Source of the DNA: a phage
Sequence record: NC_104726.1
Length of the DNA: 64,000 bases
Reading direction: 5' to 3' (one strand)
The translations under genes and the position numbers were made by a program. Shown here piece by piece: positions 56,311 through 62,732 of this stretch. The notes below the pieces were generated by a model, which was not told the DNA's origin, did no database searches, and worked only from the letters and a program-made list of their open reading frames with translations. Numbering within the stretch: position 1 is the first letter of the stretch; each line of letters starts with the position of its first letter.

Positions 56311-57867
56311 TTAATTTTCCATGTTGGATATGGAATTATCTCTGGTTGATGACATCTTAGAAGTGCCGTTACCAGTGGATCCTGCAGCCATTCCATCACC
56401 AGCCCTGCTGATGTCCTGGCCCAAGAGCTTCATCAGCTCTTCCTGATCCATGTCCTCGTCAAATCTTTCATCAAACCCGCCTACTTCAAGAATCTTATTA
56501 ATTACTGCAGGAGTTTTTGGCAAGTAACCTACAGCACCGATCCTCTGGACAAACTTGGAGAAGCTCTCCATATCCACTTCTTCAATCAGACCAGGTTTCA
56601 GTTTAGGCATATCATCATCTTCAAGGATGATACCATTCAATGCCAGAAGCTGTGGAATAAGATCTTTATTGAAGGCCTCAGTGATAATATCTATATCACG
56701 CTGAACAAAATGACCATGGATAGACTGTTTTGACTCAGACAGAGAGAAAGATCCAACGTTATCGTTACCGAGGTTAATAAAGCCAGCACCGAAACGGTCA
56801 AGAATCGCCTTCTTACGGGCATCGATCAAATCTTTAGTGGAATATTGCTTACCCATACCGTCAACCCCCTTCAGGGTCATGGAGTAAAGCTCTTTACCAG
56901 ACTTATCTCTATCAGACGGAAGTATAAAGAAACTTTGCTCACCACTATGGGCGTTTGCTGCGTCAAGCATAAGGTCTGCAACCATTCTCCCTTCCATTGA
57001 ATTCGGGTCAATGCTGGCCTTGTTCAAAATATTGGAAGGAATTTTCAGCTCAAGCACACCACCAAGGTCTTTGGAACAGCCAACAACCTCAAGGTTTTCA
57101 ATCAGAACTTTCTCACGGAAAGATCTGTAGCAACCTATCATCGGTGACACACCTGCAGGGTTAGATTCTGTTCCTGACAGGGTCATGAGCATAAGCTTTT
57201 TAGCAGGGATGAAAATTTCAGGCTCATTAAAGCCTTTTGAAGGCATTGCAGCAAGAGGTCCAGCCCAGCGTGCATTCTGAGTGTTTAGAAATGCATTAGG
57301 TGACTGATAAATACCTGTCAGTGTTCTACTATTCTTGTCAAAGACAAACGGCTCTGATCTGGACAAACTGGCCTGAGGTCGGAATGCAATTTTATCAATA
57401 AGAAGCATCCCGGCATATTTACCTTCTTTCTCTCTGCGGTATACTTTCTCAAACAGTGAAAAACCATACTCGTTAAAGGTAGCTGCGCTTCTTGCAATAT
57501 CTCGAAGAGTTTGTTGGTTTGCCAAATTACGCAAAGAATACTCTATAAGCTCGGCAGCTTTCTTAGAGTCTTCACTTTTAACATTATAAAGGATCTTAAA
57601 ATCATTAAATGCTTTCGTGATGAAAACATATTTTGTATCTAAGGCAGTAGCAACTGTGGAATCACATTTCATAGTCTCCACTGTAGCAATCAGCTGAGGC
57701 CAACGCAATTCCTCAACCATCATAGATTGCGATTCTGCCATAATTTGGGAAAGTGCGCCAGAACCGATCTCACTCATACGAACATTATGAGTTGGTGCGC
57801 CTGCGTTCCCAGATTTATTCACAGTTTTGGCTGTGGCGTTGTGTTTCCTGCGGTTCTTTTTGGACAC
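56311..57867 (-). CDS. portal protein (518 aa)
   Basis: Size and position directly downstream of the terminase large subunit; GTG start with GAGGGG upstream. Confidence 0.6.
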   Translation of the reverse strand: MSKKNRRKHNATAKTVNKSGNAGAPTHNVRMSEIGSGALSQIMAESQSMMVEELRWPQLIATVETMKCDSTVATALDTKYVFITKAFNDFKILYNVKSEDSKKAAELIEYSLRNLANQQTLRDIARSAATFNEYGFSLFEKVYRREKEGKYAGMLLIDKIAFRPQASLSRSEPFVFDKNSRTLTGIYQSPNAFLNTQNARWAGPLAAMPSKGFNEPEIFIPAKKLMLMTLSGTESNPAGVSPMIGCYRSFREKVLIENLEVVGCSKDLGGVLELKIPSNILNKASIDPNSMEGRMVADLMLDAANAHSGEQSFFILPSDRDKSGKELYSMTLKGVDGMGKQYSTKDLIDARKKAILDRFGAGFINLGNDNVGSFSLSESKQSIHGHFVQRDIDIITEAFNKDLIPQLLALNGIILEDDDMPKLKPGLIEEVDMESFSKFVQRIGAVGYLPKTPAVINKILEVGGFDERFDEDMDQEELMKLLGQDISRAGDGMAAGSTGNGTSKMSSTRDNSISNMEN

Positions 57868-57900
57868 AAGCTTTACCCCTCAAAACAGTATAACAAAATA

Positions 57901-57918
57901 GCCCTCGTGTTAGAGGGC
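57901..57918 (-). terminator. hairpin GCCCTC-GTGTTA-GAGGGC between terminase and portal genes
   Basis: Minus strand reads the hairpin followed by TATTTTGTTATACTGTTTTG. Confidence 0.35.
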
Positions 57919-57969
57919 TAGTATCTCCGATTACTCTATTCTACCACATCTAATTAAGATTGGCAACAC

Positions 57970-58774
57970 TTAGATAAAACGCTTGAACATAGAAGGTGAT
58001 GAGATTGATGGAATCACACAAGGAAGTGCTACCTCCTCTTTCTCCAGGAAATTAATCGCAGAAGCTACACAGTCTGCCCAGTCGTCTTTTCTGTTAAATG
58101 TTGATCTTTCCCCGTTGAATTTTTCAAGTTCAGTCAGAAATGCTTCCAGAGTATCAGGATGGAAACTGGATTTTACAATTCTCACCATTCCTTGTTGGGC
58201 AAGATTGGCAAAAGGTGAGAACCTTGTCAGTTTAGATTTGTTGGAAGGCATTGGGTCTTCTTCAACCCTAAACCCTTCGGCGAGCAGGGATCTGGAGGAG
58301 GTTAAGAACTCACTCTTACCTGCCTGCCCTGGGTCCACAGAGAAGACGATTATGCAATCATCACCATCGAACTGCGCCTGTTTCCTGATGATCACATCTC
58401 GTTCACCAGCCTTTTTACAGAACTTGCCTTCCAATCCTGTGGAATACCTCCCGTCATCCACGTTCTCAGGACAATAATCACCTGACAGGTAATAAAAGCC
58501 GTCGCTATCTTTACTTACCTTAATACTGGCAGTAAAGTCAGGAAATTTATTACCGGAAGTTCTCTCGGTTCCTGCCTTATCCCATGCCCTGCAAGATACT
58601 GATCCAAGGGGTACTCTATCGGCATCACGAAGGAAAGATCTTTGAAAATAGTTTGCACCCTCAGGCTTTGCAAACCAGTTACCATGGAGAAGCTGAGCTT
58701 TTTCCAGCTCTGGTAGACCTTCGAGGAAAGCAAGGTATTCTGGGTTGTCTCTCAAACAGACAGGATTATCGAAT
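57970..58774 (-). CDS. terL: terminase large subunit, exon 3 (nuclease domain)
   Basis: AQLLHGNWFAKPEGANYF and KDDWADCVASAINF are terminase nuclease-domain motifs; in-frame TAA at 58777-58779 bounds the 5' side; no ATG at the ORF start. Confidence 0.7.
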
Positions 58775-59753
58775 CCTTATATTCAAAGGTGGTCGCAACA
58801 CCACCCTCCGCACCATTACGTGCCGCTGCATGTTACCATGCAGAGTAGACTATATCACCACCCATCTCAGGGTGCTTCGCTTTTCGAGCGCCATAGGCTT
58901 GCGCCCTACTCCCTCTCGGGATAGTCGTTGAACTACATTACCAATCGTAATTGTTTGAAATATAGGTGTAAGTCTTACGGTCTTTTATTCCTTTAACAAC
59001 ACTAAAACTTACGCCCCACTTCTTAGCTATTTTATTTACACACAAAACCCTATCACTAAGATCCTCGCAGATACCTATTATCTTGTGCTCACTTATCCTA
59101 TTAGAGGTTGGCACTTTTCTAAAGTTAAACTCTTTAGAAATATCTGGGTATACTGAGCCATTCTTTATACCACTTACAAGTGGTTGATTGACACCAAACA
59201 TTTCACAAATGTCTTTTACCCTTGCACCTTGCTCTAACAGTCTACATATTTCAAGAGCAGTGGCATCATCTAGGGACCTGTATTTATTGACATAGTCCTT
59301 TTTAAGTCCCATTTCATGAGCATGATGTGTGTTTTCCTCAGGTGTTGTCCACTCAAGGTTCCATGCGGCGTTATTCAACTTATTGCCATCAAGGTGATTT
59401 ACTTGAGTTTTCACGCTGGGATTATCATTATCAACAAAAGTCATAGCAATCACTCTGTGAACGAGCACTTGGAACTTTTTACCGTCCTCGCACAAAGTTA
59501 CCATAGCATAGCCAGTCTTTTTCTGCACATTAGGATGGAGGAATTTATTAGAATACAGACTGTAAATTCTGCCATCGTATGTAGCACAATAATGATTGTA
59601 GCCTAAAAAGCCTAAATTTTTCATTTCAAACATCTCCCTACTACAGGTTCGGAAGGGTAATTATAGCTGCTGATTGTCCGTTTAGCAATCGGATTTTCCA
59701 GCAATTAACGAAGTTATTCGACGTGCATTTCTGCACGAAGCCACTATCATTTA
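58775..59753 (-). mobile_element. group I-like intron 2 in terL (979 nt), carrying an HNH endonuclease ORF
   Basis: Begins UAAAUGAUAGUGG after exon-terminal U, ends ...UAUAAGG; core-like blocks GTTCAACGACTA (58920-58933) and AGATATAGTCTACTCTG (58841-58856) on the minus strand; boundaries inferred from frame restoration. Confidence 0.55.
58938..59633 (-). CDS. HNH homing endonuclease (intron-encoded), 231 aa
   Basis: Motif VNHLDGNKLNNAAWNLEWTTPEENTHHA; C-terminal helix-turn-helix-like repeats; ATG 59631-59633. Confidence 0.75.
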   Translation of the reverse strand: MFEMKNLGFLGYNHYCATYDGRIYSLYSNKFLHPNVQKKTGYAMVTLCEDGKKFQVLVHRVIAMTFVDNDNPSVKTQVNHLDGNKLNNAAWNLEWTTPEENTHHAHEMGLKKDYVNKYRSLDDATALEICRLLEQGARVKDICEMFGVNQPLVSGIKNGSVYPDISKEFNFRKVPTSNRISEHKIIGICEDLSDRVLCVNKIAKKWGVSFSVVKGIKDRKTYTYISNNYDW

Positions 59754-60073
59754 ATGGTTGCGCCTATGAACGAGAATGACAACGGTCTTGGCTTGATCTC
59801 TACGCCAAGTCCGTTAACCGTGGTGTATTTCTCTATCAACTCTTCTTTAGAATCTCCCCATATAAATTCACCGTCGCGTCGGATAAAATATCTTTTCTTA
59901 CCGCATTTCTCCGGATCTGGATACCCTTCATCGTCCAACCACCATCTAACCAGTTTGGCAAGCATGTGTTCTGAATCTGGGTTACAGCTGATAACCATTC
60001 TTGATGGATACTTTGACTGAGATCGCAGACGAGACATCAGATAGTCTATCTGCTCCCATTCGAATTGTGTCGT
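59754..60073 (-). CDS. terL: terminase large subunit, exon 2
   Basis: Encodes ...EWEQIDYLMSRLRSQSKYPSRMVISCNPDSEH...FIGAT; bounded by in-frame TAG (60074-60076) upstream and TGA (59747-59749) downstream. Confidence 0.6.
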
Positions 60074-60390
60074 CTATGTTCGGGCAAGGTCGCTAGTCTT
60101 GCCCCGCCATTTTTCAGGCAGCTGCATGTCTCCATGCAGACCAGACTATATCTTATAAGCGACAACAACCGCTTACCCTCCCGTTTCGAATCGCTTGATT
60201 CTACGTCTTTCGACTAGTCGTTGAACGTTCATCCTCTCGGATGCTTCGCTGCGGATTATCTAAATTAACACACTGTTACCATACCTTCGATCTCTCTTCG
60301 AAGCCTCTATCATGTTACCATGACAGGTTGGTGGTGTCAATAATAAAGATTTCCCCGCAATTAGGGAGGTTTTACGAGAGCTACAAATTA
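60074..60390 (-). mobile_element. group I-like intron 1 in terL (317 nt), no ORF
   Basis: Starts UAAUUUGUAGCUCUC right after the Walker B codons, ends ...ACAUAG; contains AATTGCGGGGAAA, AATCCGCAGC, GTTCAACGACTAGTC and AAGATATAGTCTGG blocks on the minus strand. Confidence 0.6.
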
Positions 60391-60816
60391 ACCCTCATCG
60401 AAGCAAACCATGGTGTACTCAAGCCCTTGATGGTTAAGCTTATCTTGTACATACTCCATGTGGCAGTATTTTACAACAGCTCCCTTTTTGCTTCTATCCC
60501 ACTTACCAGTGTTAGGATCAAACCGTGGAAAAATGAACTTATGATCCTTCTCTCTGAACTTTGGCTTAATGTTTTCAGGCAGATCACTATAAATAGCTAC
60601 TGCTTTAGGCCATAGTCCACCCTCACCCTCCAACTGTGGAGTTGTTCTTCGGAACATAACCACAGAGCTGTGGGGGTCATCAATAATTTTAAGCGGCATC
60701 AACTGCAAAAGGAACGACTTGCCAGACCCTGCGGCACCGCCGATTACCAAAATATCTGCATCGTTTTCGAGGATCATCTTCTGCTTTTCAGAACACGGTC
60801 CGTAAATCTTAGACAT
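60391..60816 (-). CDS. terL: terminase large subunit, exon 1 (ATPase Walker A/B)
   Basis: Walker A GGAAGSGKS, Walker B MVCFDEG; ATG 60814-60816 with AAAGGAGAGAGG upstream. Confidence 0.75.
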
Positions 60817-61103
60817 TAACCTCTCTCCTTTGGAAACAGTGTTCTAATATAGTCTTGCAAAATGATCAATTTAGCTCTATCATTGCTACAAGACAGATTA
60901 TTATCCCTCATAATGCCAGAATTCACCGCATCTGGCGCACCTTTCTTTAAAGGTATAGCTTTAGCAGGTGGTTTCATGGCACCTTCCGGGGGTTTAACAA
61001 TCAACCTTCCTACATCTGGAGGGTCAATCTTGTATTCTTTCTCAACACTGGTTGCACACCCACATAATAACAAGCACGCAATAAACAGTGTAGCAACTCT
61101 CAT
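60816..61103 (-). CDS. o-spanin (outer-membrane lipoprotein, Rz1-like)
   Basis: Signal/lipobox-like FIACLLLCGC, Pro-rich DPPDV...KPPEG...KPPAKAIP, C-terminal PKERG resembling the lambda Rz1 C-terminus; start overlaps the i-spanin stop. Confidence 0.6.
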   Translation of the reverse strand: MRVATLFIACLLLCGCATSVEKEYKIDPPDVGRLIVKPPEGAMKPPAKAIPLKKGAPDAVNSGIMRDNNLSCSNDRAKLIILQDYIRTLFPKERG

Positions 61104-61498
61104 CGATCCTCCTGATTGATACTCTCATTATAAATATCTATAAGCTGATCAGGGAGTGTTGACTTCTTACCTTCAGGTGATTGGAGGTAGATAATCTGCT
61201 TTTCTTTACCTGCCTTCTCAGCCATGTTTAATTTATCCTGTAGGTCAGAAAGAGATTTTTCAAGGTTTTTAACCTCCTCTGCGTGGCCCATTTTAATTTT
61301 GTCGGCCTGCTTTTGTTGCTGATCAAGGATCCGTTCCCACTTTAACTCTGTTGCTGACACACCCTCTTGGTAGGCATCATTAAGCTTAGAGTTAAACCAA
61401 TACACGGCCCCAAGATAAGCTGTACCTATAGCCGCTGCAAAAACTAAACCTTTTATGATCCCTCTATACCTACTCAGCCATGTTAAACCTGAAATCAT
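61100..61498 (-). CDS. i-spanin (inner-membrane spanin, Rz-like)
   Basis: N-terminal hydrophobic helix then charged coiled-coil periplasmic domain; paired with the downstream lipoprotein gene. Confidence 0.6.
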   Translation of the reverse strand: MISGLTWLSRYRGIIKGLVFAAAIGTAYLGAVYWFNSKLNDAYQEGVSATELKWERILDQQQKQADKIKMGHAEEVKNLEKSLSDLQDKLNMAEKAGKEKQIIYLQSPEGKKSTLPDQLIDIYNESINQEDR

Positions 61499-61919: not shown

Positions 61920-61996
61920 TGGTCTCCACGGAGTGATTCGAACACTCGACCTCCTGATCCCAAATCAGGCGCTCTACCAAGCTGAGCTACGCGGAG
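61920..61996 (-). tRNA. tRNA-Pro (anticodon TGG)
   Basis: Manual cloverleaf: acceptor CTCCGCG/CGTGGAG, anticodon loop TTTGGGA, T-loop TTCGAAT, encoded CCA. Confidence 0.75.
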
Positions 61997-62007
61997 TATT
62001 TACTATT

Positions 62008-62082
62008 TGGTGGCCCTGGGTGGAATTGAACCACCGTCTGGCGATTATGAGTCGCTTGCTTGAACCTTCCAGCTACAGGGCC
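62008..62082 (-). tRNA. tRNA-Met or Ile2 (anticodon CAT)
   Basis: Acceptor GGCCCTG/CAGGGCC, anticodon loop CTCATAA, T-arm GGTGG-TTCAATT-CCACC, CCA. Confidence 0.7.
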
Positions 62083-62083
62083 T

Positions 62084-62159
62084 TGGTGCTGATGGCAGGA
62101 CTTTAACCTACAACCTATTGATTACAAATCAATTGCACTACCGATTTTGCTACATCAGC
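62084..62159 (-). tRNA. tRNA-Thr (anticodon TGT), non-canonical T-loop
   Basis: Acceptor GCTGATG/CATCAGC, anticodon loop TTTGTAA, T-loop TTAAAGT (A where C56 is expected), CCA. Confidence 0.6.
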
Positions 62160-62164
62160 AAAAA

Positions 62165-62263
62165 GGTGCTAGGTGATGGAATCGAACCACCTATGTATTC
62201 AACGACTACCTCGTCTATTTTCAGGATTAAAAATCCTCGCCCTTGCCAAAGGGCTTACCTAGC
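62165..62263 (-). tRNA. atypical 99-nt tRNA-like gene (anticodon ambiguous)
   Basis: Perfect 7-bp acceptor GCTAGGT/ACCTAGC, D-stem GCCC/GGGC, T-arm GGTGG-TTCGATT-CCATC, but 47 nt between D and T arms and no encoded CCA. Confidence 0.4.
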
Positions 62264-62361
62264 TCAGTATGTTGACCATGTTGCTAGTCGGCGATGACGA
62301 CTGTAACATTTGATAATCCGGTTCTGCTTCCGACTTTCGCTTAATTACAAGGTCAACAATG

Positions 62362-62452
62362 TGGCGGAGAGTAATGGAATCGAACCATCATCGAGTCATC
62401 CTCAACGGGACGGTTTTCAAGACCGCTTGAGCACCATTGCTCCCTACCCTCC
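62362..62452 (-). tRNA. tRNA-Ser (anticodon TGA), long variable arm
   Basis: Acceptor GGAGGGT/ACTCTCC, anticodon loop CTTGAAA, T-loop TTCGATT, CCA. Confidence 0.7.
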
Positions 62453-62566
62453 TTTATAAATAATACTGATAATGACACTGATTTTCGAGCAGTTAGTGAC
62501 TAGTATAAACGACGATAAATATCAATGCCATTATCTGTATTATTTATGCATCTAAAAATATAAATT

Positions 62567-62653
62567 TGGTGGGGAGTGGTGGAGTCGAACCACCCGAGTC
62601 GCAATGACAATAGATTTACAGTCTACACCGCTACCTCTACGGGATAACTCCCC
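62567..62653 (-). tRNA. tRNA-Tyr (anticodon GTA), long variable arm
   Basis: Acceptor GGGGAGT/ACTCCCC, anticodon loop CTGTAAA, T-loop TTCGACT, CCA. Confidence 0.75.
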
Positions 62654-62657
62654 AATT

Positions 62658-62732
62658 TGGCACCCCGTACTGGACTCGAACCAGTGTCAACGGCTTAGAA
62701 GGCCGCTGCTTTATCCACTAAGCTAACAGGGC
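62658..62732 (-). tRNA. tRNA-Arg (anticodon TCT)
   Basis: Acceptor GCCCTGT/ACGGGGT (two G-U pairs), anticodon loop CTTCTAA, T-loop TTCGAGT, CCA. Confidence 0.7.

Follow-up and report, generated by a model that had tools for sequence, protein, structure and literature searches.

Two predicted group I introns in the terminase large subunit gene of an rV5-like coliphage

The 64,000-nucleotide stretch of phage DNA considered here (NC_104726.1, hereafter the window) belongs to a Vequintavirus, an rV5-like coliphage, and carries on its minus strand, at positions 57970–60816, a terminase large subunit (TerL) gene laid out as three exons with two group I introns between them. Judging from the sequence, we regard it as very probable that both inserts are group I introns within a single TerL gene, and that this gene is spliced to give a TerL of 515 residues. 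Chance can be excluded here, because intron 1 matches its Rfam model with an E-value of 6e-20 and because precise intron-less alleles are found in related phages. The two-intron structure of this gene is already known, having been published since 2013, and is not a discovery of this work. In the GenBank entry for rV5 (DQ832317/NC_011041), TerL is given as a three-piece join (“ORF64ABC”) with ORF65 labeled an HNH homing endonuclease, and Kropinski et al. (2013, Virol J 10:76; PMC3606486) describe the gene as being in three segments in a section on “Introns in terminase”, with D. Shub thanked for the intron location. The same gene, both insertion sites, and the HNH open reading frame (ORF) of rV5 recur in the window, with a nucleotide divergence of about 2.5% between the two.

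Organization of the TerL gene and its predicted product

The ORF list contains collinear minus-strand coding ORFs at 60388–60816 (142 residues), 59747–60037, and 57970–58755, together with a free-standing ORF at 58938–59633 (231 residues). The exons and introns that we assign to this region are as follows.

60391–60816, minus strand: TerL exon 1, 142 codons, with the Walker A and Walker B motifs of the packaging ATPase; last nucleotide U60391 (ORF; Pfam Terminase_6N)
60071–60390, minus strand: group I intron 1, 320 nt, without an ORF; terminal G60071 (Rfam RF00028)
59754–60070, minus strand: TerL exon 2, 317 nt, remaining ATPase domain; last nucleotide U59754 (intron-less alleles; identity to ABI79304.1)
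58775–59753, minus strand: group I intron 2, 979 nt, its P6 loop holding an endonuclease ORF; terminal G58775
57970–58774, minus strand: TerL exon 3, 805 nt with the stop codon counted in, covering the last part of the ATPase domain and the RNase H-like nuclease (Pfam Terminase_6C)

Exon 1, whose junction was set by comparison with the intron-less site in phages ime, FV3, and PDX, holds the Walker A motif as GAAGSGKS and the Walker B motif as MVCFDE. Once spliced, the coding sequence (CDS) has 1548 nt and encodes 515 residues, on which Pfam places Terminase_6N at residues 25–294 (E 6e-20) and the nuclease domain Terminase_6C at residues 394–489 (E 5e-6). Both the ORFs and these domain matches bear out the original prediction, made from the sequence alone, that the three TerL segments lie in order on one strand with Walker A and B first and the nuclease last. 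By its sequence, the predicted spliced product is a terminase large subunit of the T4-like type, with its ATPase and nuclease domains in one polypeptide.

An exact-sequence look-up found the 515-residue product to be identical to ABI79304.1, the TerL of rV5. When the spliced protein was used in a tblastn search, 1191 of the 1250 matching phage records covered 80% or more of its length at a single location. Moreover, the alignment to intact terminase genes that had been proposed as a check gave the expected outcome, in that the uninterrupted TerL genes of distant phages align to the spliced protein as a single piece (a Salmonella phage with 69% identity, Felix O1-like phages with 34%, and the Vibrio phage ICP1 with 34%). 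A sequence search of the spliced TerL against the Protein Data Bank (PDB) gave no match.

Intron 1

Foremost among the evidence for intron 1 is its match to the Rfam group I model RF00028, which spans the full model (1–253) with 84 bits (E 6e-20) against a gathering threshold of 50 bits. The predicted P1 pairs GAGGGU|UA with the internal guide UAGCUCUC over 8 bp (60389–60396 with 60376–60383) and includes the wobble U60391.G60381; in intron-less alleles, a C or an A stands at this site instead of the exon-terminal U. Here, the P8 hairpin lies at 60155–60176, and its strands differ in sequence between the window (GUAAGCGG/UCGCUUAU) and phage HdK5 (GUGAAUGUG/CACAUUCAU), with the pairing being kept. 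TAA is the first codon of the intron, so translation that runs into it stops early. Among known introns, that of T4 td resembles intron 1 in the P7–P9 region, with 81% identity over about 79 nt, and the phiKZ introns share 73% identity over 187 nt. Separately, we noticed that a 78-nt piece of intron 1 (nt 107–184) matches an unannotated site elsewhere in phages JLBYU08 and Av-05.

Intron 2 and its HNH endonuclease

At the gathering threshold, the Rfam search of the window returned intron 1 as the sole group I match. In E-value mode, run on 58600–59900 and on the whole window, intron 2 appeared as two sub-threshold RF00028 halves (3′, 31.2 bits; 5′, 24.4 bits), because the 696-nt HNH ORF interrupts the match to the RNA fold. 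An ORF-less copy of intron 2 in phage RudolfGeigy (268 nt; 1745–2012 of the RudolfGeigy locus sequence) scores 95.6 bits with the same model, and the RNA parts of the intron in the window are identical to it at 88 of 88 positions on the 5′ side and at 155 of 159 on the 3′ side. The covariance-model search suggested in the original prediction was thus decisive for intron 1 (84 versus 50 bits), whereas intron 2 was rescued by way of its RudolfGeigy ortholog; with this, the group I core expected in both inserts was found. No further group I introns were detected when the whole 64-kb window was searched with Rfam in E-value mode.

The predicted P1 of intron 2 pairs CCAU|UA (59752–59757) with UAGUGG (59741–59746) over 6 bp, and again includes a wobble, formed by U59754 and a G. 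TGA, as the second full codon of this intron, likewise stops translation early. Both inserts therefore have what had been noted for them, namely an in-frame stop at their opening (first codon in insert 1, second full codon in insert 2), an exon-terminal U, and a stretch that can pair with the exon end (P1 of 8 bp and 6 bp, each with a U.G wobble). The exon sequence around the insertion site of intron 2 reads GCAACAAT|ATTCGAT. Two features within intron 2 complete its description.

58932–59667, minus strand: long-range P6/P6a stem closing the ORF loop, 59656–59667 (GCUAUAAUUACC) with 58932–58942 (GGUAAUGUAGU)
58938–59633, minus strand: intron-encoded HNH homing endonuclease, 696 nt, 231 residues (Pfam HNH_3; PDB ID: 1U3E)

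The P6/P6a stem is an 11-bp duplex (−8.7 kcal/mol) whose 3′ strand contains the stop codon of the ORF, and it occupies the position of the short P6 hairpin in RudolfGeigy; the P6 sequences of the two phages differ, with the pairing kept. We also found introns similar to intron 2 in Bacillus SPbeta-like phages, in T7-like DNA polymerase genes, and in nrdD of other Vequintaviruses; an intron of Bacillus phage SPR shares 72% identity with it over 230 nt. The intron-2-like sequences in the nrdD genes of other Vequintaviruses lie in PV435126 (91469–91600), OR062943 (18204–18335), and OK272482 (56541–56613).

The ORF within intron 2, which the original prediction had not mentioned, matches Pfam HNH_3 with an E-value of 1.7e-6 (28 bits versus a cut-off of 24.8), and shows weaker helix-turn-helix matches just under the curated Pfam cut-offs. 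Its counterpart in rV5 is annotated as an HNH homing endonuclease. Residues 11–154, the HNH motif region included, align (E 3e-11) to I-HmuI (PDB ID: 1U3E), the nicking HNH enzyme of the DNA polymerase intron of Bacillus phage SPO1, although the window protein is longer at its C-terminal end (231 versus 174 residues), with the weak helix-turn-helix matches as an extra. The ORF could begin at either of two ATG codons, 59633 or 59624, with a GGGAG Shine-Dalgarno-like sequence 1 nt and 10 nt away, respectively. As the second ATG is the better spaced one, translation may start at 59624 and give a protein of 228 residues rather than the annotated 231.

Splice junctions and alternative explanations

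The exon junctions can be fixed because many Vequintaviruses have an uninterrupted TerL. In ime and FV3, the 1548-nt TerL CDS is continuous, and its alignment to the window leaves gaps of exactly 320 nt (60071–60390) and 979 nt (58775–59753). Whereas the original prediction had the limits of intron 2 exactly right, it put intron 1 at 60074–60390 (317 nt), which the intron-less alleles correct to the 320 nt given above. The last nucleotide of a group I intron has to be a G, and G60071 is invariant in rV5, RudolfGeigy, HdK5, and naswa, with position 60074 being an A in all four; the 3′ splice site of intron 1 is therefore placed after 60071. In the window, a G is present at 60074, as part of the roughly 2.5% divergence from rV5, and it misled the original prediction, which read this end as …CAUAG|ACG ACA CAA, as against …CAUAAACG|ACACAA or …CAUGAACG| in the relatives. 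Across the five or six aligned relatives that bear the introns, G60071 and G58775 are conserved throughout, so that the terminal G proposed for intron 2 stands and that for intron 1 is replaced by G60071. A one-base shift of either splice site was rejected on inspection, as the intron then no longer ends in G or the spliced sequence no longer matches the intron-less alleles.

The junction at 60071 gives the protein sequence DEG|TQF, which is that of every intron-less homolog. All differences in the exons flanking the junctions are synonymous (GGC>GGT, ACG>ACA, and CAG>CAA at intron 1, and ACA>ACC at intron 2), and two of them create a U.G wobble or strengthen P1, as expected, on the face of these sequences, from co-conversion or flank adaptation.

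Were intron 1 nonetheless to span only 60074–60390, TerL would have 516 residues and an extra threonine (DEGTTQF). Besides the G at 60074, the open frame of this version speaks for it, and removing the two inserts as originally delimited does leave an uninterrupted 1551 nt. Yet we consider such an intron very unlikely, given the A at 60074 and the invariant G60071 in the four relatives; moreover, the intron-less alleles and PDX lack 320 nt rather than 317 and encode DEGTQF, and the 516-residue sequence is missing from a collection of 15 billion proteins, the 515-residue one being the annotated rV5 protein. The 516-codon product was accordingly abandoned in favor of the 1548-nt CDS and its 515 residues. 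A different alternative is that the gene is split but not spliced, with one or both inserts being non-splicing endonuclease insertions and TerL being assembled from separately translated fragments, as is the case for the Aeh1 NrdA split by mobE. Such split genes do exist in phages (cited in PMC7344957), and automated annotations list the fragments of this gene as separate terminase proteins. This is extremely unlikely in the present case, as the group I core is complete in both inserts, each with its U.G wobble and terminal G, as neither exon 2 nor exon 3 shows a start codon or Shine-Dalgarno sequence at its junction, and as intron 1 is without any ORF and hence is not an endonuclease insertion. 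That the inserts are inteins was rejected because of their in-frame stop codons. These same stops, by breaking the reading frame, might suggest a pseudogene or an assembly artifact, but the likelihood of a broken terminase gene is close to nil: TerL is essential for tailed phages, the same architecture recurs in many independently sequenced viable phages (rV5 and BASEL isolates among them), and the exons are 97–99% conserved with an identical encoded protein.

Some observations do weigh against the splicing of two group I introns. Taken alone, intron 2 stays below the Rfam threshold in the window. The P10 pairing to the 3′ exons, judged by eye, is weak in both introns (3–4 bp and out of register), and was of no help in choosing the splice sites. 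The introns of rV5 itself had been deduced from BLASTX and expert advice (PMC3606486). In addition, some HNH-containing insertions in phage genes do not splice, for instance in Aeh1 nrdA and at one insertion in phage CB7 (cited in PMC7344957).

Intron distribution among Vequintaviruses

Over 3.2 kb, the TerL region of the window shares 97.5% DNA identity with rV5 (96–99% for the individual parts, and 100% for the spliced protein), and its identity to over 100 further Vequintavirus records is 96–99%. Tail genes spanning 20 kb gave the same picture of relatedness, with no identical record in the phage collection. Among phages that are about 98% identical, the two introns are present or absent independently of each other, with the following allelic states.

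Neither intron: ime, FV3, Murica, FFH2
Intron 1 only: naswa, slur16
Intron 2 only: PDX, ECML-10
Both introns: rV5, the window phage
Intron 1 with a 564-nt insertion in the P8 loop, endonuclease VII-family: HdK5, navn, MaxBurger, APECc02
Intron 2 without the HNH ORF: RudolfGeigy

By approximate count, intron 1 occurs in about 52 and intron 2 in about 31 of the roughly 118 records with this TerL. The P8-loop insertion, found at 1329–1919 of the HdK5 locus sequence and corresponding to about position 60162 of the window, encodes a 196-residue protein of the endonuclease VII family (Pfam E 2e-21). As for RudolfGeigy, its ORF-less intron 2 may either have lost the endonuclease or be ancestral.

Within this group of near-identical sequences, we noticed 18 records labeled “Campylobacter phage” (MG0656xx, e.g., MG065662 and MG065635; host Campylobacter jejuni) that are 97–98% identical to the Vequintaviruses of Escherichia coli across TerL and the 20 kb of tail genes. 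From this identity, their host labels are probably wrong or the samples contaminated.

Relation to known introns

Outside rV5, the announcement of phage LL12 reports predicted introns in TerL and in the DNA polymerase gene, and the TerL genes of the BASEL phages are annotated with joins. A closely comparable case is that of CB7 and phiTE (Pectobacterium phages; Certrevirus, Vequintavirinae), which are of the same subfamily, and in which an orthologous TerL (58% identity) is interrupted at Walker B by a group I-like intron with an HNH ORF. Splicing of this intron has been demonstrated for CB7 by RT-PCR and sequenced products (PMC7344957). In phiTE, the intron (581–1550 of the phiTE locus sequence) scores 35.2 bits as a group I intron and separates the D codon of Walker B from the E codon, 6 nt upstream of where intron 1 sits in the window, an offset that marks it as a different insertion into the same motif. 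In contrast to the window, the HNH ORF of phiTE and CB7 is found at this first position, where intron 1 has none, and a second intron is lacking. From these sequences, Walker B looks like a repeated target for intron insertion.

By their sequence, both introns of the window can be classed as ordinary phage-type (IA2-like) group I introns. The T4 td intron and other phage introns of the IA2 type (in phiKZ, SPbeta-like Bacillus phages, and T7-like DNA polymerase genes) share with them the P7–P9 core and an ORF looped out from a peripheral helix, but are located in nucleotide-metabolism or polymerase genes rather than in TerL, and the enzyme is of the GIY-YIG kind (I-TevI) as opposed to HNH here. 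The sole prior case of a group I intron in TerL cited by the rV5 authors is a single intron in a siphovirus of a Gram-positive host (PMC3606486).

Neighboring genes and other features

On the minus strand, TerL is flanked by the o-spanin gene (60816–61103) on one side and the portal gene (56311–57867) on the other. A terminator-like structure follows TerL.

57892–57920, minus strand: intrinsic terminator-like hairpin after TerL, UAGCCCUC-N6-GAGGGCUA followed by UUUUGUU (read from the sequence)

The homologous position in rV5 is annotated as a Rho-independent terminator. Upstream, the i-spanin gene (61100–61498) overlaps that of o-spanin by 4 nt (ATGA; 61100–61103), and the latter overlaps TerL by 1 nt (TAATG; 60814–60818), an arrangement that suggests translational coupling of the lysis genes to the start of the packaging gene. 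The o-spanins of naswa and ime are mis-annotated as “putative large terminase subunit”. Further along, a tRNA-like gene of 99 nt (62165–62263, minus strand) lies within a cluster of seven tRNA genes (61920–62732) identified by ARAGORN, which calls it “tRNA-???” with a 4-base anticodon; it scores 35.5 bits against the Rfam tRNA model, has an apparent long variable arm, and is matched in rV5 by a place between trnT and trnS where no tRNA is annotated.

Proposed mechanism and implications

With the two inserts taken as spliced group I introns, the TerL region would be transcribed as a single pre-mRNA, in which each intron (of the phage IA2-like type) is expected to fold into a P1–P9 core and bind exogenous guanosine. 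Cleavage would then occur after the exon-terminal U (U60391 and U59754) held in the U.G wobble of P1, and exon ligation after the terminal G (G60071 and G58775) would produce the 1548-nt mRNA for the 515-residue TerL. Unspliced RNA should give rise to truncated products only, given the stop codons at the opening of each intron. We infer from the sequences both that the introns self-splice in vivo, with guanosine as the initiator, and that the HNH enzyme drives homing. The HNH enzyme of intron 2 presumably cuts or nicks the intron-less TerL of co-infecting relatives, after which repair would copy the intron in. In keeping with such homing, phages with about 98% identity to one another differ in intron presence, and the synonymous changes in the exon flanks are consistent with co-conversion. 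As for intron 1 of the window phage, an endonuclease would have been either lost or never present.

More tentatively, and with the balance of probability against it, the part of TerL that comprises Walker B and the ATPase sequence downstream of it may, in the Vequintavirinae, be an active hot spot at which several mutually independent group I introns compete and are passed from phage to phage during co-infection. This idea is based on the six allelic states among phages of about 98% identity together with the third intron 6 nt away in Certrevirus, the types including ORF-less, HNH-bearing, and endonuclease VII-bearing introns. The efficiency of splicing might also gate the timing or the amount of terminase production.

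TerL commonly serves as a phylogenetic marker and for predicting the type of DNA packaging. Automated pipelines report the TerL described here in two to five pieces, labeled as “terminase family” or as hypothetical proteins, and placing the splice site at 60071 yields the 515-residue protein common to the intron-less relatives. Moreover, as the related phages offer every combination of intron presence and endonuclease content, they represent a ready system for the study of intron homing and of endonuclease gain and loss.

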